NCBI GenBank assembly: GCA_963674735.2
Contig: CAXXQS010000001.1
Location: forward strand, 544,001 to 608,000
Source: Myxococcota bacterium
Lineage (GTDB): Bacteria > Myxococcota_A > SURF-8
Direction: 5' to 3'
Length of the DNA stretch: 64,000 nucleotides
Shown here: positions 39,969-60,267 of the stretch, one piece after another
Position numbering within the stretch: position 1 is the stretch's first letter
Layout of the letters: each line of letters starts with the position of its first letter
Position numbers and translations under genes: made by a program
Notes under the pieces: model-generated
What the model was told of the DNA's origin: nothing
Database searches by the model: none
Seen by the model: only the letters and a program-made list of their open reading frames with translations

Positions 39969-40002
39969 CAACAACTGAGAAGTTTGGGAAACTAAGCCAG
40001 AA
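39969..40002 (-). promoter_or_regulatory. Island motif copy A (TTCTGGCTTAG-N10-TTCTCAGTTGTTG)
   Basis: Both blocks are identical in 4 copies; faces ORF 39904. Confidence 0.8.
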
Positions 40003-40248
40003 GGGGTCGATTTTTCTGTTGTTTTTCGATATTTGTTACTACGAGACCTCTTGGTTACGCCATAACCTGTGGATTTTTCACAAGTATTTCTTTGACCTGA
40101 AGTCTCAAAAAAGTTATGTTATCAAAACTTTAAATGGACGAATTTCAATACGGATGGACCCGGATTGACCTTAGCACCCTGAACCACCCAACAGAGTTCC
40201 TACCGGGAAACCGAATCTCGAATTCAGAATTGTGGAAGGAACTCTACG

Positions 40249-43101
40249 TTGACACCCGACCCCCTACAACCCGAAGCCCAGGCCAGAGTGAGAATCGACG
40301 CTCAGCTGGAAGCATCCGGCTGGGTTGTACAGGACTGGAAGGACATGAACCTCTATGCTGCTCAGGGGGTGGCTGTTCGGGAATTCGTGATGGCAACCGG
40401 TTACGGTTTTGCCGACTACCTGCTGTTCGTAGATCAGAAAGCCGTGGGGGTTCTGGAAGCCAAGAAGGAAGGCTTCACCCTGTCAGGTGTCGAAGGCCAG
40501 GCTGAGAAGTACAGCAAGGGACTCCCTGAAAACCTTTCCGTTCCCGTTCGACCTTTGCCGTTTCTTTATCAAGCCAACGGGGAAGAAACCCGTTTCACAA
40601 ATGGTCTTGACCCCGATCCTCGTGCCAGAGAAGTCTTCCAGATTCACCGTCCCGAAACCCTTGCCGAGTGGCTGTTAGCCGACAATCTGGACGATTGGGT
40701 GAAGTCCACCGGTTCCCACACGGCTGCTGACGATACACAACCTTCGACCTTCCGGTCACGTCTTCAGACTCTGCCGGAGCTGGAACGATCCTTCCTGTTC
40801 CCAAACCAGTTCACGGCCATCGGGAATCTGGAACACAGTCTGAAGCAAAACCACCCCCGTTCCCTGATTCAGATGGCTACCGGTTCCGGCAAGACCATCA
40901 TGGCCATTACGGCCCTGTACCGGCTGATTAAGTTCAGTGGAGCCAGACGAACACTTTTCCTGGTGGACAGGAAGAATCTGGGAGAACAGGCTGAGAAAGA
41001 GTTTCAAGGCTTTCGGACGCCGGACGACAACAAGAAGTTCACGGAGCTTTACAACGTCCAGCTTCTTCAATCCAACTCCATCAGAGATTCCTCGAAGGTA
41101 GCCATAACGACCATACAACGTCTGTATTCGATGTTGAAGGGTGAGCCCGACCTTGACCCTGCCCTGGAGGAAGAAAGTGCGTTTGAGGGCGTTCCTGGCC
41201 GTAAAGAACCTATGCCGGTGGTGTACAACGATACTTATCCACCGGAATTCTTCGATTTGATTGTGGTGGATGAATGCCACCGTTCCATTTACAGCCTCTG
41301 GCGGCAGGTGCTGGAATATTTCGATGCCTTCCTAGTGGGACTGACGGCCACCCCGGCCAAGCACACCTTCGGATTCTTCAACAAGAATCTGGTGATGGAA
41401 TACGACCACGACAAAGCCGTGGCCGACGGTGTGAACGTGGACTTCGATGTCTACCAGATCAAAACCCAGATCACCGAGCAGGGTTCCACCATCGAGGCCA
41501 ATGACGACCTGATGCTGACCTTCCGGGATCGTTCTACCCGTGCCAAACGGTGGGAAACCCCTGACGAGGATGTGGATTACACAGCCGGTGACCTCGACCG
41601 GAAGGTGGTGGCCAAAGACCAGATACGGACGATTGTCCGGACCTTCAAGGAAAAGCTGTACACGGAGATTTTCCCCGGCAGAACCGAAGTCCCCAAGACC
41701 TTGATTTTTGCCAAGGACGATTCCCATGCCGAAGACATCGTGGACATCGTTCGGGAGGAATTCGAACGGGGTAACGACTTCTGCCAGAAAATCACCTACA
41801 AGACCACGGCCAAGAAACCCAAGGAGCTGATTCAGGATTTCCGTAATTCCTACGAGCCTCGGATTGCCGTGACGGTGGACATGATTGCCACCGGCACCGA
41901 CATCAAGCCTATTGAAATTGTCATGTTCATGAGGGCGGTGAAAAGCCGGGGGCTGTTCGAGCAGATGAAAGGTCGTGGGGTTCGGGTGATTTCCAAGACC
42001 GATATGAAGGCTGTTTCTCCTGATGCCAAGAACGGCAAGACTCATTTCGTGATTGTGGATTGTGTGGGTCAGTTGGAGATGGAAATCAGCGACACCCATC
42101 CACTGGAACGGAAGAAATACGAATCCCTCAAGTCCCTGCTGAACCACGTTGCTGCCGGTGGCACCGACCCGGATGTGCTGTCTTCATTGGCTTCCCGTCT
42201 GTCCCGGCTGGAAAAGAAATTCTCGGTGGATGACCAGGAGCAGATTCGGAAGACCACCGAGGGTGTCCCCTTGAAGAAGATTGCCCGGGCTCTGGTGGAT
42301 GCCGTAGACCCGGATGTTCAGATCGAGAAAGCACGGGAGGTGAACCACCTGCCGGAGGATGCCGAACCCACCGAAGCTCAGGTGAAGGCCGTGGCCGATG
42401 ACCTGAAACGGGAGGCGGCCAAGCCCTTGGCAGCCAACCCGAAGCTCAGGAATACCATTCTGGAATTGAAGCAGAAGTTCGAGCAGTTGATTGATGAAGT
42501 CAGTATCGATCATGTCCTGTATGCCGGTGTGAGTGAAGAAGCCAAGGAAAAGGCCAAGGCTCTGGTGCAGGATTTTGAAACCTTCCTGGTCGAGAACCGG
42601 GACGAAATCGATGCCCTGCAATTCTTCTATGCCCAGCCTCACCGGCGACGGCTGACTTTTACCGACATCAAGGGTCTGGCCGAAGCCATCAAGGCTCCGC
42701 CCCGTTCGTGGACGCCGGATTTGTTGTGGAGAGCCTACGAGACGATGGAGAAATCCCGTGTCCGTGGGGCCAGTGGCCGGAGGCAGTTGGTGGATCTGGT
42801 GTCGTTGGTGAAGTTTGCCCTGAAGCAGGAACCGGTGTTGGAGCCGGTGAGTGAGCATGTGAAGGAACGTTTCGACAACTGGCTGGCCCAGCAGGAGACG
42901 GCGGGCCGGAGGTTTACGGACGAACAGACCCGTTGGCTGACGATGATCCGGGACCATATTGCCAGCAGTTGGGAAATGGAAATCGACGACTTCGACTATG
43001 CCCCCTTTGCCGAGGCCGGTGGCCTGGGTCGGGCTTCTCAGGTATTTGGGCAGGAGTTGAATGTGTTGTTGAAAGAGCTGAATGAGGCACTGGTGGCATG
43101 A
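40249..43101 (+). CDS. hsdR: Type I restriction enzyme R subunit (EcoAI/EcoEI-like)
   Basis: ADYLL..VLEAK, QMATGSGKT, DECHRS, LTATP, TGTDI, QMKGRG.R. Confidence 0.96.
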   Translation: MTPDPLQPEAQARVRIDAQLEASGWVVQDWKDMNLYAAQGVAVREFVMATGYGFADYLLFVDQKAVGVLEAKKEGFTLSGVEGQAEKYSKGLPENLSVPVRPLPFLYQANGEETRFTNGLDPDPRAREVFQIHRPETLAEWLLADNLDDWVKSTGSHTAADDTQPSTFRSRLQTLPELERSFLFPNQFTAIGNLEHSLKQNHPRSLIQMATGSGKTIMAITALYRLIKFSGARRTLFLVDRKNLGEQAEKEFQGFRTPDDNKKFTELYNVQLLQSNSIRDSSKVAITTIQRLYSMLKGEPDLDPALEEESAFEGVPGRKEPMPVVYNDTYPPEFFDLIVVDECHRSIYSLWRQVLEYFDAFLVGLTATPAKHTFGFFNKNLVMEYDHDKAVADGVNVDFDVYQIKTQITEQGSTIEANDDLMLTFRDRSTRAKRWETPDEDVDYTAGDLDRKVVAKDQIRTIVRTFKEKLYTEIFPGRTEVPKTLIFAKDDSHAEDIVDIVREEFERGNDFCQKITYKTTAKKPKELIQDFRNSYEPRIAVTVDMIATGTDIKPIEIVMFMRAVKSRGLFEQMKGRGVRVISKTDMKAVSPDAKNGKTHFVIVDCVGQLEMEISDTHPLERKKYESLKSLLNHVAAGGTDPDVLSSLASRLSRLEKKFSVDDQEQIRKTTEGVPLKKIARALVDAVDPDVQIEKAREVNHLPEDAEPTEAQVKAVADDLKREAAKPLAANPKLRNTILELKQKFEQLIDEVSIDHVLYAGVSEEAKEKAKALVQDFETFLVENRDEIDALQFFYAQPHRRRLTFTDIKGLAEAIKAPPRSWTPDLLWRAYETMEKSRVRGASGRRQLVDLVSLVKFALKQEPVLEPVSEHVKERFDNWLAQQETAGRRFTDEQTRWLTMIRDHIASSWEMEIDDFDYAPFAEAGGLGRASQVFGQELNVLLKELNEALVA

Positions 43102-43115
43102 GGAATTCAGACTAA

Positions 43116-44666
43116 ATGGCCAGATCAAAAAAACTCCAATTACCTGATCCCCCATCAACAGTTTTGCCAACTGGCTGGAGTTGGGCTCCTTTAGTTGACC
43201 TGACCAGAAAAATAGTAGATGGAACACACCATACCCCTAAATACAAGCCTGATGGGATTCCATTTTTATCTGTCAAGGATGTGAGAAACCAAAGACTCCA
43301 CTTTGATGATTGCAAGTACATTTCCCCTGAAGAGCATGATGAACTGACCAAAAGATGTCACCCAGAAAGGGGAGATTTGTTGGTGACCAAATCCGGCACC
43401 ATAGGAAGGACTGCAATTGTAAAGACTGATATTCCGTTCAGTTTGTTCGTTAGTGTTGCTCTGCTCAAACTTGTAGAAGTGGACGTGGATGTTCGGTGGA
43501 TTGAGTATTCTTTTCAGAATTGGCTCCAAAATACCAATGTTCAAAATGATGTAAAAGGCACTGCAATAAAAAATCTTCACCTCGAAGATTTCCGCCAAAT
43601 GTGGGTCCCGTTTCCACCCCTCCCCGAACAGCACCGGATCGTAGCGGCCATCGAGACCTATTTCTCCCGGCTGGACAAGGCCGTGGAAGCCCTGGAACGG
43701 GTGAAAGCCAACCTGAAACGGTACCGGGCCAGTGTGCTGAAGGCTGCCGTCGAGGGTCGGCTGGTGCCCACCGAAGCCGAGCTGGCCAAGGCTGAAGGAC
43801 GTTCGTTCGAACCGGCTTCCGTGCTGCTGGAACGAATTCTCAAAGAACGACGGAAGAAGTGGGAGGAGGCCGGACGTAAGGGCAAATACAAAACCCCCGC
43901 CGCCCCCGACACCAACGGCCTGCCGGAACTGCCGGAGGGCTGGTGCTGGGCTACGGTGGAGCAATTGGCAGCAGATGAACCACGATCACTGACTGATGGT
44001 CCGTTTGGTTCGAATCTAAAAACTGCACACTATACAGATTCTGGGCCAAGGGTGGTAAGGCTTCAGAATATTGGGGAAACCAAGTTTCAAGATGCTGAAG
44101 CTCATGTCTCAGAATCTCACTACCAAAAATTGATAAAACATGCCGTATTTGAAGGAGACATTGTCATAGCTTCTCTTGGAGAAGAATTGCCAAGAGCCTG
44201 TTTGGTTCCCAAGTGGCTAGGTGATGCAATCGTCAAGGCTGATTGTTTAAGGTATAAGCCGAATCCCAATTTGGCTTTTTCCCCATACATCATGTTCACA
44301 CTAAACTCTCGGGTAATTAGGAATTTCACGAAAGAGCTAATTCATGGGGTCGGTCGGCCTCGAATTGGATTGACTGTACTTCGAGAGATACCAATTCCGT
44401 TACCTCCTTTTCATGAACAGATACGGATTGCAGAAGAAATCCATAGGTTGTGGTCAGTCTCCGAGAAATCAAACGAAGTAATTGACACCAACCTCCAACG
44501 AACCACCCGTCTCCGGCAGGCCATCCTGAAATGGGCCTTTGAAGGCAAGCTGGCCGACCAGGACCCGAACGACGAACCGGCATCGGAACTCTTGGAGAGG
44601 ATTCGGCAGGAACGGGAGGGGATGGGGACGGGGAAGAAGGTGAAAAGACGGGGGAGGAAAGGATGA
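43116..44666 (+). CDS. hsdS: Type I R-M specificity subunit
   Basis: LP.GW.W and PPL.EQ.RI repeats around two TRDs; DEPASELLERI tail. Confidence 0.96.
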   Translation: MARSKKLQLPDPPSTVLPTGWSWAPLVDLTRKIVDGTHHTPKYKPDGIPFLSVKDVRNQRLHFDDCKYISPEEHDELTKRCHPERGDLLVTKSGTIGRTAIVKTDIPFSLFVSVALLKLVEVDVDVRWIEYSFQNWLQNTNVQNDVKGTAIKNLHLEDFRQMWVPFPPLPEQHRIVAAIETYFSRLDKAVEALERVKANLKRYRASVLKAAVEGRLVPTEAELAKAEGRSFEPASVLLERILKERRKKWEEAGRKGKYKTPAAPDTNGLPELPEGWCWATVEQLAADEPRSLTDGPFGSNLKTAHYTDSGPRVVRLQNIGETKFQDAEAHVSESHYQKLIKHAVFEGDIVIASLGEELPRACLVPKWLGDAIVKADCLRYKPNPNLAFSPYIMFTLNSRVIRNFTKELIHGVGRPRIGLTVLREIPIPLPPFHEQIRIAEEIHRLWSVSEKSNEVIDTNLQRTTRLRQAILKWAFEGKLADQDPNDEPASELLERIRQEREGMGTGKKVKRRGRKG

Positions 44667-44737
44667 GTGGCTATCAAAATATTCTTTCCCAATTCAGCTA
44701 TTCCTCTTTACCCAGTCAATGCTTGGACATTATGTAG

Positions 44738-45730
44738 GTGATCAATTTGGATTTTTGGCTAGATGACACAACTGGAGTATTAGCTATTTGCATATTCCTT
44801 GCGAGGTTAGCAGACTTTTTAATCATGCCGGAAGGTAGACGCTGGTTAATAAGGAAGGCTGGTAATGTCTGGGTTTTGCTCGAAGAAATGACATTTCGAG
44901 GAATTATTACTCAAGATGCTGCGATATTGCTTGAGTTCGCCGATAAGGTTAAAAACCATTTCAAGATGCCAATTTTCTTGCTTTCTGTGTTGTCCTCAGG
45001 CGTCATTGCGGTGTATTTCTATTTCATATCCTATTCTCACAGTATATATGCGGGATTGCTAATCATATTAGTTGTCTCGTTTATTATTGCCGACAAATTG
45101 ATTCCATCTGAACTTTGGAAAATGAAGCACAATAATAAGCTTGTAAGCTCGGCTAATTATAGTGGATGGGGATTCGGTGGTGTCATCTTTGTAGACACAA
45201 TTAAAGACGTGATACTCGCAATATATCTCTGGACAACAGATGCTGAATTTTTAGAAATTCCAAAACATTATTATTTGTATATTATGACGTTGATTCTTTT
45301 TATTACAAACAAGGTGTCTTATGGCGTTGCTAGATACTATTTCAAGAAGATAATTGGAACTTCAAGCATTTTGGCAATGATAAGACATTTGGTTTTTGCA
45401 AATGCACTAACATTGATTTTATTCACTGTTGTATACTATTGTTACTATGCAATGCTTAATAATGTAACTCTGCCGAGTGGACTGTTTGCCGGAGAAGGTG
45501 CAAAGACAGCATTTATTGTCTGCTATCTGGCTGTGTCAGCTTTTCCTTTGGTTGTGTTTCAATGGTTTTTAACAATATCTCTATTTTGTAAAATTGTTTC
45601 ATACTTGCCATGGTTGTCTTCCATCCCATTTAGAGCTTACTATTCTGATGATGGAAACAATTTGACCAAAGTTGCTGTTCTGATATCAGGATTGGTAAAG
45701 ACAATTCAATATCTCGTGAAGGAGGCCTAA
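44738..45730 (+). CDS. Multi-pass membrane protein inserted between hsdS and hsdM
   Basis: About 7-8 hydrophobic segments; AT-rich relative to the flanking hsd genes. Confidence 0.75.
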   Translation: MINLDFWLDDTTGVLAICIFLARLADFLIMPEGRRWLIRKAGNVWVLLEEMTFRGIITQDAAILLEFADKVKNHFKMPIFLLSVLSSGVIAVYFYFISYSHSIYAGLLIILVVSFIIADKLIPSELWKMKHNNKLVSSANYSGWGFGGVIFVDTIKDVILAIYLWTTDAEFLEIPKHYYLYIMTLILFITNKVSYGVARYYFKKIIGTSSILAMIRHLVFANALTLILFTVVYYCYYAMLNNVTLPSGLFAGEGAKTAFIVCYLAVSAFPLVVFQWFLTISLFCKIVSYLPWLSSIPFRAYYSDDGNNLTKVAVLISGLVKTIQYLVKEA

Positions 45731-45788
45731 ATGCTGCAAAAGTCTCCGATAATTTACAACATTCGGCATAATAGAAGATGGTGATACA

Positions 45789-47291
45789 ATGACCGACTCA
45801 TCAGCCCGAATCGTCCAGAAACTCTGGTCTTACTGCAACGTCCTGCGGGACGACGGCCTCTCCTATCAGGACTACCTCGAACAGTTGACCTTCCTGCTGT
45901 TCCTCAAGATGGCCGACGAACGGGCCAGACTGACCGGCAAGGACCAGCCCATCCCTGAAGGCTACCGCTGGGAAGACCTGTCCAACCCCCAGATGGAAGG
46001 CACCAAACTCGAAGCCTTCTACCGGAAGCTCCTGTCCGAACTCGGCAAACAGAAGGGGATGCTGGGGCTGGTATTCCGTAAGGCCCAGAACAAAATTCAG
46101 GACCCGGCCAAACTGAGGCAGTTGGTGGTGGAACTTATCGGCAAGGAGCAGTGGCTCTCGATGGATGCCGACGTGAAGGGGGACGCCTACGAGGGGCTTC
46201 TCGAACGGAACGCCCAGGACGTAAAGGGCGGAGCCGGACAGTATTTTACACCCAGACCCTTGATTCAGGCCATCGTGGATTGTGTGAAGCCCACTCCCGG
46301 TGAACGGATCATCGACCCGGCCTGTGGCACCGGCGGCTTCCTGCTGGCAGCCCACGACTACCTGGCCGGAACCTACAAACTCGACCGTGACCAGAAGAAG
46401 CACCTGGCCTATGAAGCCCTGCACGGGGTTGAACTGGTGGACGGTGTAGCCCGGCTCTGTGCCATGAACTACATCCTCCACGGCATCGGACCGATCAACG
46501 GGGAATACGAACCGACCCTGAAGGGTGGAGAAGACAGCTTACGGGACGAACCACCGGAACACTACGAGGTGGTCATCACCAATCCGCCCTTCGGCAAGAA
46601 AAGCAGCATCACCGTCATTGCCGACGACGGCAAGTCCAACACGGAAACCATCTCCTACAACCGCCCTGATTTCTGGACGACGACCTCCAACAAGCAACTG
46701 AACTTCGTGCAGCACGTCAAATCCCTGCTGGAAATTCACGGACGAGCTGCCGTCGTGGTGCCGGATAACGTGCTGTTTGAGGGAGGAGCCGGGGAAACGG
46801 TGAGGAAGAAACTCCTTCAGGAGTGTGATGTCCACACCCTGCTCAGGCTGCCGACCGGAATCTTCTATGCCCAGGGGGTCAAGGCCAACGTCCTCTTCTT
46901 CGACCGGAAGCCCGGAGCCAAGACAGCTTGGACCAAGAAGTTGTGGGTCTACGATTTCAGAACCAACAAACACTTCACCCTGAAGACCCGACGGCTGGTT
47001 CGTTCGGACATAGACGAGTTTGTGGAACTCTACAAGCCCGACAATCGAAACACCAGAAAGGCCACCTGGTCGGAAAAGAACCCCGAAGGCCGGTGGCGGT
47101 CCTTCACCTATGAGGAACTGCTGGCCAGAGACAAGGTGTCCCTCGATATCTTCTGGCTTCGGGATGAATCCCTCGAAGATTCGGCCAACCTCCCCGACCC
47201 GAACGTCCTGGCCCAGGAGATTGCCGACGACCTGAATGCCGCCCTGGAGCAGATTGAGGGGATTCTTGGGGACTTGGAGGAAAGGGTATGA
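45789..47291 (+). CDS. hsdM: Type I R-M methyltransferase
   Basis: GQYFTPR, DPACGTGGFL, NPPF, LRLPTGIFY. Confidence 0.97.
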   Translation: MTDSSARIVQKLWSYCNVLRDDGLSYQDYLEQLTFLLFLKMADERARLTGKDQPIPEGYRWEDLSNPQMEGTKLEAFYRKLLSELGKQKGMLGLVFRKAQNKIQDPAKLRQLVVELIGKEQWLSMDADVKGDAYEGLLERNAQDVKGGAGQYFTPRPLIQAIVDCVKPTPGERIIDPACGTGGFLLAAHDYLAGTYKLDRDQKKHLAYEALHGVELVDGVARLCAMNYILHGIGPINGEYEPTLKGGEDSLRDEPPEHYEVVITNPPFGKKSSITVIADDGKSNTETISYNRPDFWTTTSNKQLNFVQHVKSLLEIHGRAAVVVPDNVLFEGGAGETVRKKLLQECDVHTLLRLPTGIFYAQGVKANVLFFDRKPGAKTAWTKKLWVYDFRTNKHFTLKTRRLVRSDIDEFVELYKPDNRNTRKATWSEKNPEGRWRSFTYEELLARDKVSLDIFWLRDESLEDSANLPDPNVLAQEIADDLNAALEQIEGILGDLEERV

Positions 47292-47349
47292 TGGAATGCC
47301 AAACACAAATATACTTACAATACACTCTGAATCGGAGGGATGTCGAATA

Positions 47350-48252
47350 ATGGACCTCCAACAAGCTTATTATGAACTCAAGTTTGAAAATGCCTTCTTG
47401 AAGGCAAAAGGAGATGCATTCCAAGACTTCTTTGAAAAACTGATGGGGTTGGCATACAAGGCAGATTTTATGGCATGTCACCCTTGGGGTAATCGTGGCG
47501 ATAAAAAAAATGATGGCTTTCTTAAGTCTGAGAGAAGGCTATTTCAGGTATATGCACCATATGAAATGACTGAAACAAAAGCTATTGATAAAATTACAGA
47601 GGACTTTAATGGAGCACTGGAGTATTGGGGCAGCCTTTTTGACAAGTGGGTTTTTGCTCATAATGCAGATGATGGCCTTCCACCACATGTACAGAAGGTC
47701 CTATTGGATTTTGAACAGGACCATCCGGGAGTAACAATTGAGCCTTGGTGTCGTGAGGAGCTACGTTCGGTTTTTCGACTTTTATCAATTGATGACCTTC
47801 AGTCTTGGTTTGGTTTTGCTCCGACTTCAGAAACTAAAGCAAGACTAGGATTTAGAGATTTACAGATAGTTCTTGAGAATATTTCTCAGAACCCAGTCAA
47901 GAGCAATGGACCAGTGAAAGATGTTCCTCCCGGTAAGATTCTGGCAAATGCCCTGTCTCCAGCTATTGAGAAATTGCTTAAGGAAGGCATGTCAAAGGTC
48001 TCTCTCGTAGAAGATTTTTTCAGCCAGTGGCATGACCATACCCTTGGAGAACGTATATCCAAGTCGTTTAGAGCAAAATATGATGAACTAAAAGCTGATT
48101 ACACTCCGAATACAATATTCACTGAGCTTCAAGCATGGAGTGGAGGAAAAGAACGTGGGGTTCCCGAGCATGAACTGGCCGTATTGACGGTAATGGCCTA
48201 CTATTTTGAAAGATGTGATATTTTCGAAGAGCCAGGGAGTGAGAAACTATGA
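47350..48252 (+). CDS. Lamassu/ABC-3C effector, nuclease-like N-terminus plus CTD (LmuA-like)
   Basis: FQDFFE.LM...G..GDKKNDG...FQVYAP..K...DF; C-terminal YYFERCDIFE. Confidence 0.85.
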   Translation: MDLQQAYYELKFENAFLKAKGDAFQDFFEKLMGLAYKADFMACHPWGNRGDKKNDGFLKSERRLFQVYAPYEMTETKAIDKITEDFNGALEYWGSLFDKWVFAHNADDGLPPHVQKVLLDFEQDHPGVTIEPWCREELRSVFRLLSIDDLQSWFGFAPTSETKARLGFRDLQIVLENISQNPVKSNGPVKDVPPGKILANALSPAIEKLLKEGMSKVSLVEDFFSQWHDHTLGERISKSFRAKYDELKADYTPNTIFTELQAWSGGKERGVPEHELAVLTVMAYYFERCDIFEEPGSEKL

Positions 48253-48497
48253 TATTACCATCGAAACACCTTTCTCAAAGTCAAGCTCTGCTTACCTTCG
48301 GAGCCATGATATTGGATAACCTTCGAACACCAAAAACGGTTTCCTCTCTTTGGGAGGAATTTCGAAAACGAGATTTTGCAGACGATGTGGTTTCAGTACC
48401 TCAAAATTACGACTGGTTCATTTTGGCTTTGGACCTATTGTTCATCATCCACGCTGTGGAGTTGGAGGACGGGCTACTCACTCGGAAGGCATCATGA
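48249..48497 (+). CDS. Lamassu/ABC-3C middle component (LmuC-like)
   Basis: MILPSKHL...TVSSLW...YDWFILALDLLF; overlaps both neighbours. Confidence 0.85.
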   Translation: MILPSKHLSQSQALLTFGAMILDNLRTPKTVSSLWEEFRKRDFADDVVSVPQNYDWFILALDLLFIIHAVELEDGLLTRKAS

Positions 48498-50215: not shown

Positions 50216-50216
50216 A

Positions 50217-52085: not shown

Positions 52086-52086
52086 C

Positions 52087-52989
52087 CTACAGGCTTTCTA
52101 GTCGTTTCCGAGCCTCTTTCAAATACGATTCATTCAAATCAATCCCAATGAAATTCCGATGCTGTTTCATAGCAGCCTCACCAACGGCAGCCGTTCCGGC
52201 AAACGGGTCGAGAATCGTCCCACCTTTGGGACAACCCATCAAGACCATTGCCTCGGCAAGATTGACCGGCATGACGGCATGATGTTTACCCCGGCTCCTG
52301 CCACAATTGAAGGTCCAGACATCCCGACTCAGTTCGGTGGGGAAACCTGCCAGTGCCGCGGCATACCGGTCAAACTGGTATGTCCGTGACCGGCTCAGCA
52401 GAAAAATCGTTTCGTGCCCGACCAGCAACCGGTCCGATGCCCTGCTGGGCATACTATCGGGTCGGTGCCAAATCATTTCATTACGAATAATCCAACCGTC
52501 AGCCTGTAGGGCAAATGCCACCCTCCAGGGGATTCCAGCAAGGCTCTTGAACCTCAATCCAACGTCGGTTGGCGTCGGACGTTTGTGAGTGGCTGTAGAT
52601 TCTTCATAGCTCTTGTTTTTCGAGATTCGTTGTCCCTGAATGCCGGTCGTGATTTTCGATGGGTCGCCCGTTTCATTGCTCATGTAGGTGTCCCCGATAT
52701 TCAGCCAGACCACCCCATCCGTTCGTAAAACCCGTTTGACTGATCGGAACACTTCGGCCACGTGACGGGCAAACTGGTCAGGGTCGGGCTCCAGTCCCAG
52801 TTCCCCGGCCCAGCCATCCTTCCATGACTGGGGTTCGGTTCCATACTGCCTCTGAAGCCAATAGGGTGGTGAGGTGATGACGCAGTTCACCCTCGTCTTG
52901 CCAAGACCATCGAGAGTAGAACGGGAATCCTGACCATAGAACAGGTCTGCTTGGGTGCCGTTCCTCGAATGCATGGTGACTTTTTGCAT
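52087..52989 (-). CDS. Beta-class N4/N6 DNA methyltransferase
   Basis: TSPPYW, WLNIGD, H.AVMP, DPFAGTA. Confidence 0.92.
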   Translation of the reverse strand: MQKVTMHSRNGTQADLFYGQDSRSTLDGLGKTRVNCVITSPPYWLQRQYGTEPQSWKDGWAGELGLEPDPDQFARHVAEVFRSVKRVLRTDGVVWLNIGDTYMSNETGDPSKITTGIQGQRISKNKSYEESTATHKRPTPTDVGLRFKSLAGIPWRVAFALQADGWIIRNEMIWHRPDSMPSRASDRLLVGHETIFLLSRSRTYQFDRYAAALAGFPTELSRDVWTFNCGRSRGKHHAVMPVNLAEAMVLMGCPKGGTILDPFAGTAAVGEAAMKQHRNFIGIDLNESYLKEARKRLESL

Positions 52990-53177
52990 TTTTACCCCTA
53001 ATTGTTGCCTACGGTCATTTTTCTTCAAAAAAAATTCACCCCCATATTACCACGTTTTCGGACCGAAGAAAACACATCCAAGTGGTCGATTATTCTCTTC
53101 TTTTCATTCTCTATTCGTTTTCAGTCATCCAGCTTCGGGGAGGGAAAAATTAATCATATCAGGCGCATACAAAAAAT

Positions 53178-53211
53178 TTCTGGCTTAGAAGCTCCAAGTT
53201 CTCAGTTGTTG
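53178..53211 (+). promoter_or_regulatory. Island motif copy B
   Basis: TTCTGGCTTAG-AAGCTCCAAG-TTCTCAGTTGTTG, 70 nt before ATG 53282. Confidence 0.8.
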
Positions 53212-53281
53212 AAGTGTCGGACGAACAAAACGTTTCGTTCCAAAACATAAAGGACCTGCGGGTCAGAAAGAAGAAATTGTT

Positions 53282-54163
53282 ATGACCAAGAAGAACAAAA
53301 AGAACCAGAAGCCGAAAAACACGAACACCACCAACGAAAGGAACGAGAGGATGAAGACGAACTACACTTCCAAGACTAGTCGTCCCACATCTGCTGGTAT
53401 GGGGAAAAATCCGTACAAAGAATGGTTAGCTGATCCTCATATGCACGATGGCTACGAGGATTGGCTTGAAGACTGTTATGGCGGTGATGTAGGGGCGGTC
53501 TGGCTTGATTCCGGTATCGAATCGGTTGAACGTGTCCTGACCGATAGTGTTGCAAGAATCACAAAGTTACCAAAGGTCTTAAGGAGAAAATCGCAAAAAG
53601 CTATGAGTAAGACACTATCTAGCAGTCTGTTAAAAGGAACCTGGTTGGATGCTACCGATAATGATGTGTTTATTATCGTTGGTATAGGTGCATTAATTGT
53701 TTTGTCGGCACTCCCAGAGGTAGAACAGAGGTATGCAATATACGTCCAACGAGCCATGATTGCATATGCAATAGCAGTCATAGAAGCTACGGTAGAAGTT
53801 CGGCGTATTGAACAAGAAAAACCAGGTTACGAACAATGGCTGAAAAACGAATATGGCAGCCAGGTAAGTTCCGTTACGGCAAAGCATCAAGTGTTTGGCA
53901 ATTGTGGCCCCGAGGACATTTTTGGATTGATAAGTGAAACGTTAGATAAACATCCAGAATTTGAAAATTTATCATCGGTAGGTTGGTGGGATGTACCGGA
54001 CCACTTATTGGCAAAATTGCTGTCTGATATGCTGCCGAACGGCTTGTTAATAGGGAAACTGTATCCAGACAGCTTGCTTTTCAAGCACGTTAGCAGAGCT
54101 TGGTATGACCACATATTCAAAATCAGGGATGATCCCGCCTTCATGGAAACATGGATTCCATAG
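53282..54163 (+). CDS. Hypothetical protein with repeated Y..WL...YG motif
   Basis: K/N-rich leader; YEDWLEDCYGGD and YEQWLKNEYGS. Confidence 0.7.
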   Translation: MTKKNKKNQKPKNTNTTNERNERMKTNYTSKTSRPTSAGMGKNPYKEWLADPHMHDGYEDWLEDCYGGDVGAVWLDSGIESVERVLTDSVARITKLPKVLRRKSQKAMSKTLSSSLLKGTWLDATDNDVFIIVGIGALIVLSALPEVEQRYAIYVQRAMIAYAIAVIEATVEVRRIEQEKPGYEQWLKNEYGSQVSSVTAKHQVFGNCGPEDIFGLISETLDKHPEFENLSSVGWWDVPDHLLAKLLSDMLPNGLLIGKLYPDSLLFKHVSRAWYDHIFKIRDDPAFMETWIP

Positions 54164-54244
54164 GTTGTTAACCCGGCAAACGGTACCGACCAGTTGAATG
54201 GTCAACTGGTCGTTACATAAAACCCCCGGTAAAGGAGAAATCAG

Positions 54245-54820
54245 ATGACTAAGCAGACAAAGAATCAGAAGACGAACAACACCAACGGAAAAGTAGAATC
54301 AACCATGCAGAAGAAGAGCAAAAACCAGAAGCCCGAAACCCAGAACAATCTAACCGAGGACAATGAAATCCACAGTGTCCACGAACCGGATGTCGGAGAA
54401 GAAAGAAAAGAAATGACGTATGATGAGTGGCTGGACAATGAATATGGTGGGGATAACCAAGGGGTCTGGTTTGACTATGCTTACCGCTGGTATGACGACG
54501 TGGAAGAAATGATAGCACCCTATGTTGAAGATGATGATGATCTTGAATGGTATGACTACGACGAGCTTTATAACTTGGTCTTGGTCCATCTAACAGGAGA
54601 TGCACAGACCGGAACCGACACTGTTGGTGAAACGGTTTTCGATCATATCGAAAGGGCATTGACGGAGTACATTGAAGAAGCCCAAGCCGAAGCACGGCAG
54701 GAAGCCGAGTATGCACGGCAGGAAGCCCGGATTGAAGCCAGAGTTGAAAAACTGGTGGCAGAACGGTTGGAGGCTGCCGTAGCTAAAAGGTTGGCAGAAA
54801 TGACAGCCGAAAACCAATGA
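54245..54820 (+). CDS. Acidic hypothetical protein related to 53282
   Basis: Similar leader, YDEWLDNEYGGD, C-terminal coiled coil; RBS AAGGAG. Confidence 0.7.
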   Translation: MTKQTKNQKTNNTNGKVESTMQKKSKNQKPETQNNLTEDNEIHSVHEPDVGEERKEMTYDEWLDNEYGGDNQGVWFDYAYRWYDDVEEMIAPYVEDDDDLEWYDYDELYNLVLVHLTGDAQTGTDTVGETVFDHIERALTEYIEEAQAEARQEAEYARQEARIEARVEKLVAERLEAAVAKRLAEMTAENQ

Positions 54821-54846
54821 AATCCCTTACAAGGAAAGATCACCAT

Positions 54847-54884
54847 CCGTCAGCCTGTCAAAAGGCTGTCGGGGGTTTTCTTTT
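54847..54884 (+). terminator. Probable intrinsic terminator
   Basis: CAGCCT...AGGCTG stem followed by a T-rich tract, between convergent genes. Confidence 0.55.
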
Positions 54885-54983
54885 ATAGCATCCTGATTAC
54901 TGGGCAGGCTGCCTGATATCATAATCGAACATCATCCAGGTATGCCGTCGTTCATTCATATGGACTACTGCTTTTTTTGGGAT

Positions 54984-57311
54984 TCATTTGTTGGTAGTTA
55001 CTCCCACCACCCAACCACCGTTCCGATTCCACTTCCAACGTTTCAATATCTTGACGGCATCGGCTAATCCAACCTGCCTGGGTTTCCCCGTCTTTAGCAG
55101 GCAGGCTTTCACAAGGCCACTGAACGGCATTGCAACCTTCATTGAGGGTCTGTCTACCAATACCCGGGAAACGGCCTCCAGGCGGCCAATAGGGATGTCT
55201 GGCGATAGGGTCTTGACTGTCACTGCCTGCCGGTTCCCGTTGGCAACCAGCTTCACCGACCATTTCCGAGCATCATCACGAAAACGTCGGGCTGACAGGA
55301 TAACGAAATCTGCCTCCGGGGGTGCTGACCTGACTTTTCGAGGTTCTATCTCTCCCTTGGTTTTCACTGTTGGTTGCCGGAATGTCAGCACCATTCCCTT
55401 CGGATGGTGCTTGGTTCCGAGCTTATACAGGCTGGGGAAATTAACCTCGTCCCACACCCAGCTATCACCCGGATGAACAAGGAATCGTGCCTGTCCCTTC
55501 CAGGAGGCAAGCCTGGCAAGCTGGGCAATGGCATGGGGCATTCTGTTAGAGGGAACCTTATCGGCCAGTTCCCTTAAATCCACCGTGCATTCCCGGTAAT
55601 GGCCATCATTGGGGAGTCGTCGGCCTGCTGTCAGCAGGTTCCAGTCCTCAACTGTTGGCCGGAAAAGCACGGGTTCAGACGCGGGGATGTGATGTCCCAC
55701 ACCACCCACGTCTTTTTTACTGAGAGTAACCCCAGAATCGGAGCCGTCCCGTGAGACAGAACCCCTCCCGTTTGAGGTCATACCGGACAGTTCTTGGCCT
55801 GCTGGTTGGCCGGTAGAGTTGGTGCTCGTCGGAGTCTTACTAGTAGACGAATAGGCAGGTACAGAAGAATCCCCATAGGGAGAGGAACCTTCCATTCCTA
55901 ATCCATTTACCTTGTCAGATAGTATAGTCAGGTTATCCATACTATCCGTTTCCCTACCTGGAACATTAGTCAGGGAAATACTCCGATTCTTATTATGGGA
56001 TACCAAAGGTCTGTCACCTTCCTTATGGCATCCTCCTTCTGTCCGTCCTTCCCTATAGGGATTGACATACAGTAAATCACTCGAAACCCCAGCAGGTGGG
56101 TTCGGGTCGATTACTTTATTCAAGATGGTCTTCAGGAATCTCTTCGAGACCATCTTGTACTTATTCTTTCTTCGTATTTCATTCAGGCTCGGCTCTGGGG
56201 ACAATGCCTTAATCAACCTGGCCGTCTTATCGTCACTCAGCCCTATATGGCCGATTCCGACCTCAAAGGTCTTAATCAGAGGTACAGGCTCAATGGCCAC
56301 GTTGTAAATCCTGGAGGCTTTCCCTTCAGTTCCGAGGGGTCGGACATTCTTGAACCCAAGGTCTTGGGTTATTTTATAGAAAGCCCCGTAGGCTTGGTTG
56401 GCTCCAGATTCGGAGTTGGTGACCAGAACAATGTCATCCCCATAGGATGCTGTGGGAATCCCTTTGGACTTCAGCTTCTTGACAATATGGGACATGACGA
56501 TGTTAAAGACCATCGGGCTGGCTGGGTGTCCCTGTTCGATTCCATATTTCCTCGGCCTGTAAGGTTTGCCATCGGGTTTGATGGTTCGTATTCGAACCAG
56601 TTCAATCAGCCGTCTTCTTTCCGTATGGTTGATTCCAAGCTCCCGTAGTGCAGCCTGAATGGCCTGATGGGGAAGATTGCCGTAGGCGTCTTTCAGGTCG
56701 ATGAACGTCACCCAGGAGCCGTACTGGCTGATTAAGCCCTGTACAGTATCTGCAAATACGTCCTGAATGGTGATGCCATCCTGACGGTCTTTGTATTTTA
56801 GGAACTCGTGTACGAATCGAAATCCGATAACGGTCGGTTCCAGGTAATCGGCAGCTTTCACGACCTGAGTCAGATGCCAGAGGGTTAGAATCCCGTAGAG
56901 CCGTTTGGCTTCGCTCGGTACGTCAATGGGCCGGGGTTCCTTACCAGGAATCTTTGATGGAACCAGATGACGTTTGGAGACCATCCATTCAAGCCAGGTG
57001 GATTCCGTATTCAGAACTTTCTCCAGCCGGTTGAACAGTTTCATGTCATTCGAGGATGCAGCCTCGTAGACCATCCGTTTGGTGAATCTGTTGTGGTCGA
57101 GTGTGTCCGGGCTCCCCTGGTGGTGGTGAGAACCTGATGGAGTCAAAGCATCCCCAGAGGTTTCATCAAAGCCGATGGCTTTAAGCTGTTCGGCTGTCAC
57201 CCGATGGAAAATCAGCCCTGAATCTTTAGAAGTTTGCCCTGTAGGCGAAACGTTGGCCATCATCTGGTCAAATTCACGGATGAGGTTCTCTACGTGCTTG
57301 GCTTGCTTCAT
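54984..57311 (-). CDS. Reverse transcriptase of unclear class with long C-terminal extension
   Basis: GKEPRPIDVP, EPTVIGFR, FIDLKDAYGNLPH, GIEQGHPASP..FNI, YGDD (56433-56444), in RT domain order. Confidence 0.88.
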   Translation of the reverse strand: MKQAKHVENLIREFDQMMANVSPTGQTSKDSGLIFHRVTAEQLKAIGFDETSGDALTPSGSHHHQGSPDTLDHNRFTKRMVYEAASSNDMKLFNRLEKVLNTESTWLEWMVSKRHLVPSKIPGKEPRPIDVPSEAKRLYGILTLWHLTQVVKAADYLEPTVIGFRFVHEFLKYKDRQDGITIQDVFADTVQGLISQYGSWVTFIDLKDAYGNLPHQAIQAALRELGINHTERRRLIELVRIRTIKPDGKPYRPRKYGIEQGHPASPMVFNIVMSHIVKKLKSKGIPTASYGDDIVLVTNSESGANQAYGAFYKITQDLGFKNVRPLGTEGKASRIYNVAIEPVPLIKTFEVGIGHIGLSDDKTARLIKALSPEPSLNEIRRKNKYKMVSKRFLKTILNKVIDPNPPAGVSSDLLYVNPYREGRTEGGCHKEGDRPLVSHNKNRSISLTNVPGRETDSMDNLTILSDKVNGLGMEGSSPYGDSSVPAYSSTSKTPTSTNSTGQPAGQELSGMTSNGRGSVSRDGSDSGVTLSKKDVGGVGHHIPASEPVLFRPTVEDWNLLTAGRRLPNDGHYRECTVDLRELADKVPSNRMPHAIAQLARLASWKGQARFLVHPGDSWVWDEVNFPSLYKLGTKHHPKGMVLTFRQPTVKTKGEIEPRKVRSAPPEADFVILSARRFRDDARKWSVKLVANGNRQAVTVKTLSPDIPIGRLEAVSRVLVDRPSMKVAMPFSGLVKACLLKTGKPRQVGLADAVKILKRWKWNRNGGWVVGVTTNK

Positions 57312-58441
57312 TTTACTCTCCAGAAGGATACGAGCCTGCCTGTGGGTCGAGGGAGGTCGTGTGGTGCCCAGGGTTGTTTCTCATAGTCCACCCAGACGGC
57401 TCTTGAACTTGTGTCAGGCAGAGGCTCCAAGCTCGATTGTAGGCTTGATATGGCGACCTGATAGGGTTCCGGGGCACCAACCAGAGCCACGGTCGTATTC
57501 GGTTTCAGAAACCTGCTTGCTACGTCCAGGATTTCTTCGACATGGGCCGAAGGGTTTCCCCCAACGTACTTGCCTTGGAGGATGGCCCGATGTTTCAGAT
57601 ACGACATGTTGTCATTGCTTGAAAGCATCTTGGCTACCTGCCAGAAATGCAGACTGGGGATTCCGATGACCACCAAGTCCCATCCTTGCTGGGTTAGCCT
57701 CTCCATTTCATACTGCGGAGTGAAGTACGGAACCGGGATGTGGTGGACATGATGATGTGGCAGCAATGCAGACAGAGCCTGGGCATCGGCGGCAAAGCCA
57801 AGGCCGATGCCCAGGACCGAACCTGAAGTCACGTCATAGATGCCAGAATCAAACCCATTAGGCTCACAGAGAACTTGCTGACGGATGAGGGCCAGGCTCT
57901 CCACAGGTGGCCTGATAGGGTCTGAATCGTAAACCCGGCAGGAGTTAGTGGGTGCCCATTTGGCACTTACAACATCCTCGTGGACTGTTGGGTTCAAATG
58001 CCTGATGGATTCCAGGTCATCCCGGTGCAGTCCAGACCAATCGAGCCTCTGGATGCCAGTGTTTGAGTTTTGTCGGGATTGGTAGGCCGTCCCACCGATA
58101 AACAAGTCGGGATAAGCATGGTCAAACGATAATCCTCTGGACAGCTCCATCTGAGCCTGCTCGACAGCCCAGGCTGCTCGTACTCTGTTATTGGGTTCCT
58201 GAGAACCAAACGAACCTGCCAGTTGCTGAGCCCAGGCCACCAGTACATCTGATTGGCCGTATTTTCGGCTGGCCTGCTCAACAACCTCATGTGCCAGTGT
58301 GAACGGCACCAGGTCTCCAATGGCTGGGGCTTCTTCACCCAAACTGGCAACCGTGGGCTGTGGCCGTCGGTGGTATGCCCGGTGCAGGGCATCCACTCTC
58401 TGACGGAATTCTCGTTTCTGGCGGCGGTTCGACGGTTTCAT
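57308..58441 (-). CDS. Hypothetical protein, possibly a degenerate SAM-dependent methyltransferase fold
   Basis: IYDVTSGS, WDLVVIGIP, ASRFLKPNTTVALV; 4-bp overlaps with both neighbours. Confidence 0.7.
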   Translation of the reverse strand: MKPSNRRQKREFRQRVDALHRAYHRRPQPTVASLGEEAPAIGDLVPFTLAHEVVEQASRKYGQSDVLVAWAQQLAGSFGSQEPNNRVRAAWAVEQAQMELSRGLSFDHAYPDLFIGGTAYQSRQNSNTGIQRLDWSGLHRDDLESIRHLNPTVHEDVVSAKWAPTNSCRVYDSDPIRPPVESLALIRQQVLCEPNGFDSGIYDVTSGSVLGIGLGFAADAQALSALLPHHHVHHIPVPYFTPQYEMERLTQQGWDLVVIGIPSLHFWQVAKMLSSNDNMSYLKHRAILQGKYVGGNPSAHVEEILDVASRFLKPNTTVALVGAPEPYQVAISSLQSSLEPLPDTSSRAVWVDYEKQPWAPHDLPRPTGRLVSFWRVK

Positions 58442-58653
58442 TTTTCCATCTGCTCCCGATGCTCCACCAAGGCTCTTAAAACAGCATCAGGGTCAAACCG
58501 AACGGCTCGACCCAGCCTTATACAGGGAATGATTTCCTGGGCTGACAGCCGGTAGACCGTCGAACAAGAGACATTGTAGAGCCGGGCAATTTCATCAGCA
58601 GTGAAGAGGGGAGTTGGTCTTTTAATGGTCTTGGTTTCATGAATTTGTTCCAT
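58438..58653 (-). CDS. Excisionase/AlpA-like HTH protein
   Basis: LFTADEIARLYNVSCSTVYRL...IPCIRLGRAVRFD; AAGGAGG RBS before ATG 58653. Confidence 0.88.
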   Translation of the reverse strand: MEQIHETKTIKRPTPLFTADEIARLYNVSCSTVYRLSAQEIIPCIRLGRAVRFDPDAVLRALVEHREQMEK

Positions 58654-59078
58654 CGTCAGTACCTCCTTGTCATGTCCTAGGGTGGCAATAAACAAATTAC
58701 CGGCAGATACATCCTGCAACTGGTGACACCTGCTGACATGAACTTTACCCATTTCACTCCGAATACGTCCGGCGAAACGGGGGATTTGATAAACCGGCAT
58801 TGAAAATAAAACCCCTTTGGGACAGTTTGCTGTTGTCTGGAGATGGCCGGACATGGCTGGGAGTATCCTGAGACGGCTGCTGGCCATCATTTTTTCGAGA
58901 AAGAAGGGTCCTGAAACCTGGGGTATTGATACGGTTTCAGAGTTCAGGCCCCGATACGGCTCACCTGTGAACTTAAATTGTGTTTGAGATAAAAACATGC
59001 CGATTACATTTTCTCCTGGTCTGTTGACGTTTTCAGGACCTGAATTACTACTGTTCAAAACCAAGTGGTTATTCATCA

Positions 59079-59102
59079 GGGTTCAAAAGTGTTTTTGAAC
59101 CC
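59079..59102. repeat. res-like palindrome next to the resolvase
   Basis: GGGTTCAAAA-GTGT-TTTTGAACCC, with related half sites at about 59053 and 59131. Confidence 0.6.
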
Positions 59103-59120
59103 CGTTTTCAGGTATGGTTT

Positions 59121-59759
59121 TCATGGTGACTTCTGAACCCCTCGTTTTCGAGGCCATTCTCCAGCCTCTACGAGACGGCGTCGGAGAGTTGCCCGGTCGA
59201 CATCCAGCATTTTTGAAACAGCCTTCAATCCATGACCTTCGTTGAACAATGCAAGGGCAGGTCGGATGTCCACTTCCTTCACAGGACGGCCACAATGTTT
59301 ACCGGCAGCCTTTGCCCGGTTTACTCCGGCCTGAACGCGTTCAATCAGTATGGATTTTTCTAGTTCGGATATGGCCGAAACGATGGTGAACATTGCCCGA
59401 CCCATTGGGGTCGTGGTGTTAATTTGTTCTCTCAAGCTGATAAAATCGACATTAAGAGTCTTGAATTCTTCCAGAGCCTGGATGAGGTGTTGGGTGCTAC
59501 GAGCAAATCGGTCGAACCTCCAGACAGCCACAATGTCGAGTTTTCCTGCCCGTACGTCTGTCATCATCTGGTCAAGGGCAGGTCTGGATTCCTTGGAGCC
59601 GGAAATCCCTTCATCTATATAGGTATTAGTCGTCCATCCACGTTGCTCGGCAACCTGACGAAGCTCATCAATTTGCATTCCCACATCCTGGCCATGGCCG
59701 GTGGTGCTAATTCTGCCGTATAGCCCGGCTCGGATTTTCTTCTCAGTTTTGGTTGTCAT
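59121..59759 (-). CDS. Serine resolvase/invertase
   Basis: YGRIST, DEGISG..RP, RFDRFARS, SELE...I.ER, GRP, C-terminal HTH. Confidence 0.95.
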   Translation of the reverse strand: MTTKTEKKIRAGLYGRISTTGHGQDVGMQIDELRQVAEQRGWTTNTYIDEGISGSKESRPALDQMMTDVRAGKLDIVAVWRFDRFARSTQHLIQALEEFKTLNVDFISLREQINTTTPMGRAMFTIVSAISELEKSILIERVQAGVNRAKAAGKHCGRPVKEVDIRPALALFNEGHGLKAVSKMLDVDRATLRRRLVEAGEWPRKRGVQKSP

Positions 59760-59808
59760 CAGTTCAAATACTCCCTGAGTTCGAGGTAACTTTTTTTCGT
59801 TCTCACTC

Positions 59809-59842
59809 CAACAACTGAGAACCAGAGGAAACTAAGCCAGAA
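59809..59842 (-). promoter_or_regulatory. Island motif copy C
   Basis: Plus strand CAACAACTGAGAA-N10-CTAAGCCAGAA; faces the resolvase. Confidence 0.8.
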
Positions 59843-60021
59843 AACTTTCAAAACTTTTGGAGACCCTGAAACTTTCCAGACCAGACCAGGCCAGAACCGT
59901 TTAGTAAATTTCCGCCCCGGTACCTTCCGCCTCAAAAAGGTGTATTGAATACACATGTAAAATCAACCACTTAGATTAAAACCAGGTATTAAAACTGGTG
60001 TTGTAGCAAATTTTTTTCACT

Positions 60022-60055
60022 TTCTGGCTTAGTTCGTCTGGGTTCTCAGTTGTTG
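60022..60055 (+). promoter_or_regulatory. Island motif copy D
   Basis: TTCTGGCTTAG-TTCGTCTGGG-TTCTCAGTTGTTG; faces xis-int. Confidence 0.8.
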
Positions 60056-60267
60056 TAGTGCCCCTGGAATTGGTTTTCGTTGGATTTGGGGTAACAGAAT
60101 CATCGGGCAATGGTGCCCGGTGAAGCCCGGTGGATGGAAAACTTTACTTTTCGGAGATCCGTTTTTGCTTCGGTCGGTAGAGTTCCTATAGCTGCCGTTT
60201 GGTAGTAGCTGGTGGCAACGAAAGGCCATCAGGGGAATTCTGAACCAATAGTAAGGAGAAGGTAACA

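Follow-up and report, generated by a model that had tools for sequence, protein, structure and literature searches.

A bipartite promoter-like box shared by integrative bacterial islands and fragments of huge phages

What switches on the core genes of an integrative island in which no sigma factor can be recognized? The question is raised by a 31.8-kb island in the genome of a Myxococcota bacterium, which we analysed as part of a 64-kb stretch of DNA (hereafter the window; positions 544001-608000 of contig C1 of G000, the host genome of 5,264,779 bp in three contigs). The island is bounded by a 25-bp direct repeat that duplicates the 3′ end of the tmRNA gene. An earlier inspection of the same letters, here called the sequence-only reading, had noticed a 34-bp bipartite motif that faces transcription units of the island, and we refer to this motif as the box. 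In the reading that we favour, and hold to be somewhat probable, the box would be a core promoter, one of a class that is peculiar to mobile elements and depends on a dedicated specificity factor. The evidence consists of the placement and geometry of the box, its recurrence in related islands and in fragments of huge phages, and its disagreement with known promoter classes. Its sequence, distribution, orientation and geometry, like its lack of sigma70 or sigma54 features, are computed results; its role as a promoter, its need for a special factor and the origin of that factor are inferences from them.

Four box copies face the core genes of the island

A search of the window for TTCTGGCTTAG-N10-TTCTCAGTTGTTG with up to three mismatches returned exactly four matches, every one of them perfect. 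The same pattern was never matched in 100 dinucleotide-preserving shuffles of the window (mean 0, maximum 0), and the whole host genome contains no match beyond these four at ≤3 mismatches, the reversed control giving 0 as well. The blocks of 11 and 13 nt are identical in all four copies, the 10-nt spacers between them differ (TTTCCCAAAC, AAGCTCCAAG, TTTCCTCTGG and TTCGTCTGGG), and the flanks cannot be aligned.

All four copies are intergenic and each is directed at a gene start. Copy 1 (39969-40002, minus strand) ends 64 nt before the ATG at 39904 and is the putative promoter of an operon that begins with the gene for a winged-helix protein, WHD. Copy 2 (53178-53211, plus strand) ends 70 nt before the ATG at 53282, as the putative promoter of the genes for two acidic proteins; its orthologues, beside the same divergent methylase, are found on a second contig of the host genome (C2) and on contig C3 of G006, a genome of the same order. 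Copy 3 (59809-59842, minus strand) ends 49 nt before the ATG of a resolvase gene at 59759 and would serve the operon that runs from the resolvase to a reverse transcriptase (RT). Copy 4 (60022-60055, plus strand), the putative promoter of xis-int, ends 212 nt before the xis ATG at 60268. A divergent box pair like that of copies 3 and 4 also stands beside resolvase homologues on G000 C2 and G006 C1. No fifth copy with up to two mismatches in the 14 core positions occurs in the window, and none lies at the cargo genes. The number and coordinates of the copies, their invariant blocks and their variable spacers are thus as the sequence-only reading had described them. The distances to the gene starts bear out the units that it had assigned to them (the 39904 operon, the 53282 genes, resolvase-RT and xis-int), and its remark that the defence cargo lacks the motif holds at ≤2 core mismatches.

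Anatomy of the box

The core of the box, GGCTTAG-N16-GTTGTTG-nGTa, was found in 34 instances, 32 of them unique, in islands and phage fragments. The consensus of the unique instances is aaatttT.t GGCTTAG Tttc.c..a.TTctgg GTTGTTG.gGTa, in which GGCTTAG(T), GTTGTTG and nGTa are the positions of high information, with an A/T-rich stretch upstream. The spacing between GGCTTAG and GTTGTTG is exactly 16 nt in 34 of 34 instances. All of them lie between genes and point towards an open reading frame (ORF) that starts 15-135 nt downstream, or 212-234 nt downstream for two xis genes. Within 10-40 nt after many of the copies there is a hairpin whose sequence varies.

In the phage record G405, and at position 80452 of the phage record G402, a Shine-Dalgarno (SD) sequence begins 5 nt past GTTGTTG. 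Since this leaves no room for a separate -10 element downstream, we infer that transcription starts within a few nucleotides of the box end. With such a start, GTTGTTG would occupy the -10-like and GGCTTAG the -35-like position, and the box cannot then be an upstream activator site alone. The 16-nt spacing of the blocks is, judged from the sequence, sigma70-family geometry, and the box is very probably a promoter or a promoter-overlapping control box. An arrangement as direct-repeat half-sites 21 nt apart was considered and rejected, the mean identity of 6.5 of 13 positions at offset 21 not being distinctive against 5.9 at offset 20 and 5.3 at offset 17.

The sequence-only reading had proposed an element-specific promoter or activator box. 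Its view of a promoter or regulatory box of the core units agrees with the co-orientation of all 34 instances; the restriction to one element does not survive, as the family spans several islands and phages. As regards its comparison with islands mobilised by AcaCD/SetCD, the box does not have the form of a class II activator site in front of a sigma70 -10 element: the geometry is that of a core promoter, and the SD sequence follows some phage copies after 5 nt.

The triplet that precedes GTTGTTG is uniform within each element, namely TCA in the window island, TGG in a second island on contig C2 of the host genome, CGG in G003 (a genome of the same family as G000), and TCG and CGA in the phage records G401 and G402, respectively.

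The box family in related islands

A relaxed pattern, GGCTTAG-N10-TTC-N3-GTTGTTG with at most one mismatch, was searched for in 401 genomes of the phylum and was present in six. Nine matches in G000, four in G006 and two in G003 are all clustered in islands; G270, G275 and G360 have one single-mismatch match each, and the reversed control gave eight single matches. An exact scan of public genome contigs returned eight scattered single matches in unrelated phyla, which is about the chance level. The sequence-only reading had named a common host repeat as the outcome that would speak against it; the host genome has no copy outside its two islands, and the orientation of the family relative to genes is the same in all 34 instances.

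The second island of the host genome lies on C2 at about 137-162 kb, beside a tRNA-Ala gene, and a local scan raised its number of copies to six. Its layout is a mirror image of that in the window, with int/xis, a divergent box pair, resolvase/HTH_17, boxes by the methylase, a type I restriction-modification (R-M) system and a box followed by WHD. At C2:147492-147827 (L085), three tandem boxes are spaced 153 bp apart, each followed by an SD sequence and an ATG; the last precedes a 92-aa protein that looks by eye like a ribbon-helix-helix protein, judging by the translation of its G006 homologue. G006 has three such island loci. The element of G003 is small and duplicated in tandem; its boxes stand before WHD-integrase and before an operon of recombinase, HTH_17 and primase/VapE.

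The HsdR of the C2 island is 97% identical to that of the window island. Across islands of two bacterial families (window 40249-43101, G000:C2:155594-158446, G006:C3 and G006:C1), HsdR is 96-97% identical as compared with 47-77% for the core genes, which suggests a recent exchange of the R-M cargo among the islands.

A box lies directly upstream of the WHD homologue in all seven island loci of G000, G006 and G003 and on one metagenome contig, and the WHD gene of G002 is preceded by a diverged box, GGCTCAT-N16-GTCGTTG. Elsewhere in the phylum, the WHD family, PF22977, forms the N-terminus of proteins with two AAA domains. Upstream of distant WHD-AAA-AAA genes in another family of the phylum (f12; L060, L061, L064 and L067 in G303, G058, G073 and G328), a box-like sequence was seen in which GGCTTAC or GGCTGAC is followed after 16 nt by GTAGTTG, GTAGTAG or GTAATTG, with two to four core mismatches. 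The association of the box with PF22977 genes may therefore be an old one, although the statistics are weak: four of 23 upstream regions have up to three mismatches, against about 0.8 expected.

Box copies in fragments of huge phages

Exact scans of IMG/VR placed the core in four records, all from one sample: G401 (54.6 kb, six copies), G402 (88.8 kb, five copies), G404 (40.5 kb, one copy) and G405 (74.7 kb, one copy). The remaining IMG/VR matches are single and have the appearance of chance or coding conservation. DNA identity is 71-76% over 11-36 kb for the pairs G401-G402, G402-G405 and G404-G405. CheckV estimates the completeness of the four records (40-89 kb) at 8-17%, which fits phage genomes of roughly half a megabase. 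In G401, a long co-directional array encodes a family A DNA polymerase with an intein, helicases of the DnaB-like and SNF2 types, and methylases; the polymerase shares 46% identity with its counterpart in a 485-kb uncultured phage. A PHROG scan of ten large G402 proteins gave only weak baseplate matches (E ~1e-4).

The phage boxes resemble those of the islands in position. They lie upstream of ORFs, include divergent pairs and are followed by small genes; one heads the long replication operon, and another precedes a gene with a Lar-like restriction-alleviation domain. Islands and phage fragments have a methylase (39% identity) and two box-proximal genes (30-44% identity) in common.

Comparison with known promoter classes

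The sequence-only reading had stated that the motif fits neither the sigma70 nor the sigma54 consensus, and both statements stand. In a promoter scan, no sigma70 site of at least 9/12 faces any of the four units. By the same measure, 21 of 48 host tRNA/tmRNA genes have a sigma70-like site of at least 9/12 within 120 nt upstream, as compared with 92 of 2000 random 120-mers; the tmRNA promoter reads TTGACT-18-AATAAT, with TG before the second hexamer. The GG-N10-GC rule of sigma54 does not hold, the dinucleotide 10 nt after the GG of TGGC being CA, CC, TC or CT, and the family includes variants without TGG, such as AGCTTAG and CCGGCTTAG.

Promoters of extracytoplasmic function (ECF) sigma factors are bipartite with a fixed spacing of about 16-17 nt, and the constant 16 nt of the box agrees with this. 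Two other ECF features are missing: the hallmark AAC of the -35 element is absent from the box, and no sigma gene lies in the islands or has a box upstream. The host genome has 13 sigma70-family loci, with 13 Sigma70_r2 and 13 Sigma70_r4_2 matches, none of them in either island. No sigma70-family gene lies anywhere in the window, in agreement with the sequence-only reading. A search for hidden sigma factors with hhalign, using a profile of ten host ECF sigma factors, reached a maximum of 2.8% among 100 island protein clusters.

Which factor reads the box

In the favoured reading, GGCTTAG would act as the -35-like element and GTTGTTG, 16 nt further on, as the -10-like element, with nGTa at the expected transcription start. 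The box would head all four core units, that is, the WHD operon, the genes for the acidic proteins, the operon of resolvase, HTH_17, 377-aa protein and RT, and xis-int, and the defence cargo would run from ordinary promoters. Because the core units have no sigma70-type hexamers and the island has no recognizable sigma factor, the core genes are expected to be nearly silent without a dedicated factor. That such a dedicated, non-housekeeping specificity factor reads the box is, on balance, probable. It could be a sigma-like protein, another specificity subunit of RNA polymerase or a strong activator, and its arrival would turn on all four units together.

Since the same promoter class heads genes of huge phages and the island is without a sigma factor, an infecting phage of that group would be the most likely source, and we regard supply by a phage as a serious possibility, if short of probable. 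With a phage-supplied factor, the island would respond to phages as a satellite does, or as a defence island triggered by infection. It is a more tentative suggestion that the islands are wired to a private promoter class of the huge phages, so that a phage sigma factor or RNA polymerase fires all four units; the phage factor would then be a divergent sigma factor or a virion-borne or early RNA polymerase. The sequence-only reading had invoked a helper element or the host as the source of the activator. The idea of a helper gains support from the box family upstream of genes in four huge-phage fragments, and the likely helper becomes a phage rather than a conjugative element.

Several observations weigh against a phage-supplied factor and against the promoter class as we describe it. 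No candidate regulator family is common to the phage fragments and the islands, and no sigma-like protein was found in the four phage fragments, each only 8-17% complete (hhalign, 143 ORFs, maximum 13.6%). The box is absent from the more distant 485-kb relative, LR745208.1, where four matches at two mismatches compare with three in the control. The phages and this bacterium are linked only by the box and three gene families. A blastn comparison of phage and host yielded only a 27-nt identity, which lies inside a host coding region and is not a CRISPR spacer. The triplet before GTTGTTG differs between two islands of one cell, TCA in four of four copies as compared with TGG in six of six, and a factor that each element encodes would explain this difference no less well than one phage factor common to both. 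Finally, a simple sigma70 scan found 17 sites where 18.1 were expected; with such low specificity, the silence of the scan at the core units is only weak evidence. As a side observation, the 27-nt identity (G405:16484-16510 and G000:C2:235352-235378) falls in the signal-peptide region of a host gene for an Asp-rich lipoprotein-like protein.

The second candidate for the factor is the winged-helix protein of the island, acting in a positive feedback loop. In such an autonomous circuit, WHD would bind the box and activate or repress all four units, its own operon included, and no phage would be needed. Supply of the factor by the island itself, with WHD as the candidate, and the autonomous circuit as a whole both seem to us possible at a tentative level, below supply by a phage. 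They are favoured by the constant pairing of box and WHD described above, down to the diverged box of G002, and by the triplet, which is uniform within an island and different between islands of one cell, as element-specific recognition predicts. The AlphaFold2 model of WHD (pLDDT 76.7) has two long helices followed by a winged helix-turn-helix, and Foldseek returned weak matches to MarR-type regulators (E ~0.1, probability up to 0.98). The family assignment is firmer in the G003 homologue (PF22977, E = 3.9e-23).

WHD is nevertheless an awkward reader of the box. Searched with a WHD profile (A2) at E up to 1, the 258,609 bp of the four phage records with boxes yielded no homologue. A DNA-binding dimer would also leave unexplained how RNA polymerase starts at units without sigma70 hexamers, and a winged helix placed on a -10 position would normally repress. 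Outside the islands, PF22977 is found at the N-terminus of ATPases with two AAA domains, not in known transcription factors. WHD itself is rare, with only nine relatives among 5.8 billion proteins. The WHD profile matched nothing in a viral collection and only two short contigs in metagenomes, one of them with a box upstream of WHD; in a protein atlas the best score was 0.83, under the useful range, and a literature search found no paper on PF22977. The possibility that WHD is itself a hidden sigma factor was rejected, as hhalign gave 0.1% against the host ECF profile.

A host alternative sigma factor of the ECF type, or another host regulator, is an unlikely source. Islands and phages would in that case exploit a stress regulon of the host, in line with the sigma70-family geometry of the blocks and with about ten ECF-sized sigma genes in the host genome. 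The GTT in the -10-like block is reminiscent of some ECF promoters. The distribution of the box points the other way, since no host gene carries it: no genome copy occurs outside the two islands, and a relaxed scan of G000, with up to one mismatch per block, gave 17 matches outside them, fewer than the 32 of the reversed control. ECF sigma factors normally autoregulate, and this also counts against a host sigma factor, as none of 15 host sigma genes has a box upstream (best match at least 4 mismatches of 14).

Readings in which the box is not a promoter fare worse. A transcribed leader element, such as an antitermination or RNA-stability signal, would account for the hairpins behind many copies and for the conservation of nGTa. 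We consider it very improbable, because no sigma70-like promoter precedes the boxes, the upstream sequences are not conserved, the box has no conserved pairing, and a fixed 16-nt spacing with a spacer of free sequence is typical of protein-DNA recognition. Least credible of all are recombination sites of the adjacent serine recombinase, which would make the 179-bp segment between copies 3 and 4 and the 13-kb cargo segment between copies 1 and 2 invertible: both pairs are indeed inverted and a resolvase/invertase-type gene adjoins copy 3, but the box has no dyad symmetry, its central 10 nt differ in all copies whereas crossover needs identical cores, the four copies of G003 all have one orientation, the C2 island has three in tandem, phage copies are scattered before unrelated genes, and contigs of two DNA runs (X1 and X2) are colinear over copies 2-4 with no joint at a box, although rare forms would escape contigs. 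Among the contigs of three DNA runs over 43500-63400, one from X3 has an opposite-strand joint between 58011 and 59590, which is not at a box.

Genes of the island and its surroundings

The distal att repeat lies at 31496-31520 (plus strand; 25 bp, identical in 25/25 positions by blastn to 63258-63282), and the proximal repeat at 63258-63282 (plus strand) is inside the 3′ end of the tmRNA gene (63260-63611, minus strand).

Behind box 1, the first gene is that of WHD (39251-39904, minus strand), a 217-aa protein with a coiled-coil hairpin and a winged helix (Pfam PF22977, E = 2.8e-4). It is followed in the same orientation by three small genes (38508-39238, minus strand) for proteins of 77, 74 and 75 aa, the second of which matches phrog_1933 (E = 3.5e-10). 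Homologues of these small genes also stand behind WHD in the sister islands.

Box 2 precedes the genes for two acidic proteins of 293 and 191 aa (53282-54820, plus strand), whose translations have an EWL..YGGD motif in common. Neither could be placed in a family of Pfam, PHROG or NCBIfam. A protein of G006 C3 that likewise stands behind a box shares 77% identity with the 191-aa protein. Their N-termini are basic and their bodies very acidic, with the EWL..YGGD motif repeated, and they could be DNA mimics or anti-restriction proteins.

The operon behind box 3 (54984-59759, minus strand) consists of four genes, with overlapping stops and starts: a serine resolvase (59121-59759, minus strand; Pfam Resolvase, 1.8e-43), an HTH_17 protein (58438-59076, minus strand; Pfam HTH_17, 5.5e-8), a 377-aa protein without an assigned function (57308-58441, minus strand) and a 775-aa RT (54984-57311, minus strand; Pfam RVT_1, 3.3e-15). 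PDB matches of the RT are to retron and group II RTs (E ~1e-5), a weak kinship, and no DRT or retron model matched it above the model cut-off. The N-terminal ~140 aa of the nominally 212-aa HTH_17 ORF look non-coding and the C2 homologue has only 100 aa, for which reason 58650-59076 may hold a non-coding RNA.

Box 4 is followed by xis (HTH_17, 67 aa; Pfam HTH_17, 1e-16) and, from 60484, the gene for a 354-aa tyrosine integrase (Phage_integrase, 7.4e-30), which together span 60268-61548 (plus strand). In the leader between box 4 and xis (60056-60267, plus strand), the first ~75 nt, which include two hairpins, are conserved with the G006 C1 island (L007, 10035-10267). In an alignment of these two sequences, the hairpin CGGGCA-ATGG-TGCCCG pairs up with CAGGTA-ATGG-TGCCTG, with one compensatory pair. 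No Rfam family matched the leader. The 212-234-nt leader could act as a regulatory RNA of xis-int.

At 59940-59954, halfway between the divergent boxes 3 and 4, the sequence GTGTATT-G-AATACAC forms a perfect 7-bp palindrome and is a candidate operator of a dimeric repressor. One low-depth X1 contig links 63286, just beyond the att repeat, to 59949, within this palindrome.

The cargo without a box (40249-53028) comprises a type I R-M system (hsdR, hsdS and hsdM), ABC-3C-type genes and two N6/N4 DNA methylases, as assigned by Pfam. By the promoter scan, hsdR has a sigma70-like site of its own at 40092-40120 (TTGACC-17-TATGTT). Between the integrase gene and the att site, a 541-aa fusion of DUF4062 and a HAD phosphatase (61577-63202, minus strand) is probably a further cargo or defence gene.

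Directly to the left of the island lies a second mobile element without a box (15996-31520). Its tyrosine integrase gene (30393-31493) stops 2 nt short of the att copy, and it further encodes a TrwB-like coupling protein (25726-28065), a Replic_Relax protein (28067-29023), a DUF5131 protein and a large serine recombinase (15996-17123). The tmRNA site is thus occupied by islands in tandem.

Relation to known systems

If the favoured reading is correct, the box defines a new, searchable promoter class for an under-studied lineage and its huge phages, whose transcription programmes are largely unknown, and the combination of one box with four operons offers a handle for finding the factor. Integrative defence islands carrying R-M, RT and ABC-3C genes would sense infection through the promoter code of the phage itself, and infection, or the expression of a single factor, should raise both the excision of the island and the expression of the RT operon. 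Were the islands wired to the phages as suggested, they would be the first satellites, or the first example of a 'promoter-trap' defence, aimed at huge phages, using an undescribed promoter type, GGCTTAG-N16-GTTGTTG. A literature search found no description of the motif, supplementary files being outside its reach.

Promoters read by phage sigma factors, such as those of SPO1 (gp28, gp33-34) and the late promoters of T4, consist of bipartite, non-canonical blocks with sigma70-family spacing and are limited to genes of the mobile element. The box seems to resemble SPO1, T4 late and ECF promoters in its bipartite non-canonical blocks and in its restriction to genes of mobile elements. It differs from phage-sigma and ECF systems in that neither islands, phage fragments nor host yielded a cognate sigma factor.

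A single motif shared between an island and its helper is known from AcaCD. AcaCD boxes of the IncA/C plasmid lie on SGI1 and MGIVmi1, where one motif precedes xis and other mobility genes (PMC4207636). The box would be like the AcaCD/SGI1 system in standing before xis and mobility genes of an island that may not encode the regulator. In the present case the same box family occurs in fragments of four huge phages, the putative helpers, with 13 copies, and no FlhDC-like activator was found. AcaCD sites, however, are activator sites in front of a sigma70-type promoter, whereas the box would occupy the -35 and -10 positions themselves, in the absence of sigma70 hexamers; and the elements that share the box are huge phages, not a conjugative plasmid.

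Satellites provide a further parallel in logic. The late promoters of P4 are activated by Ogr of its helper P2 or by Delta of P4, so that core genes of the satellite respond to the helper. PLE islands are reported to be induced by phage ICP1, their excision and core genes responding to the infecting helper (PMC8096241). Among satellite features, the window island has an integrase, xis and a second HTH_17 protein; no primase/replicase, packaging or capsid-redirecting gene was recognized in it with Pfam, PHROG or NCBIfam, and a primase/VapE-like gene is present only in the G003 relative. As in P4/P2 and PLE/ICP1, an integrated element is proposed to have helper-responsive excision and core genes, and the favoured reading, if true, would extend the logic of AcaCD/SGI1 and P2/P4 to huge phages. 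In P4/P2 and PLE, sigma70 promoters are activated or derepressed, or the phage encodes a cofactor of excision; the islands described here would instead share with the phages a whole non-canonical promoter class.

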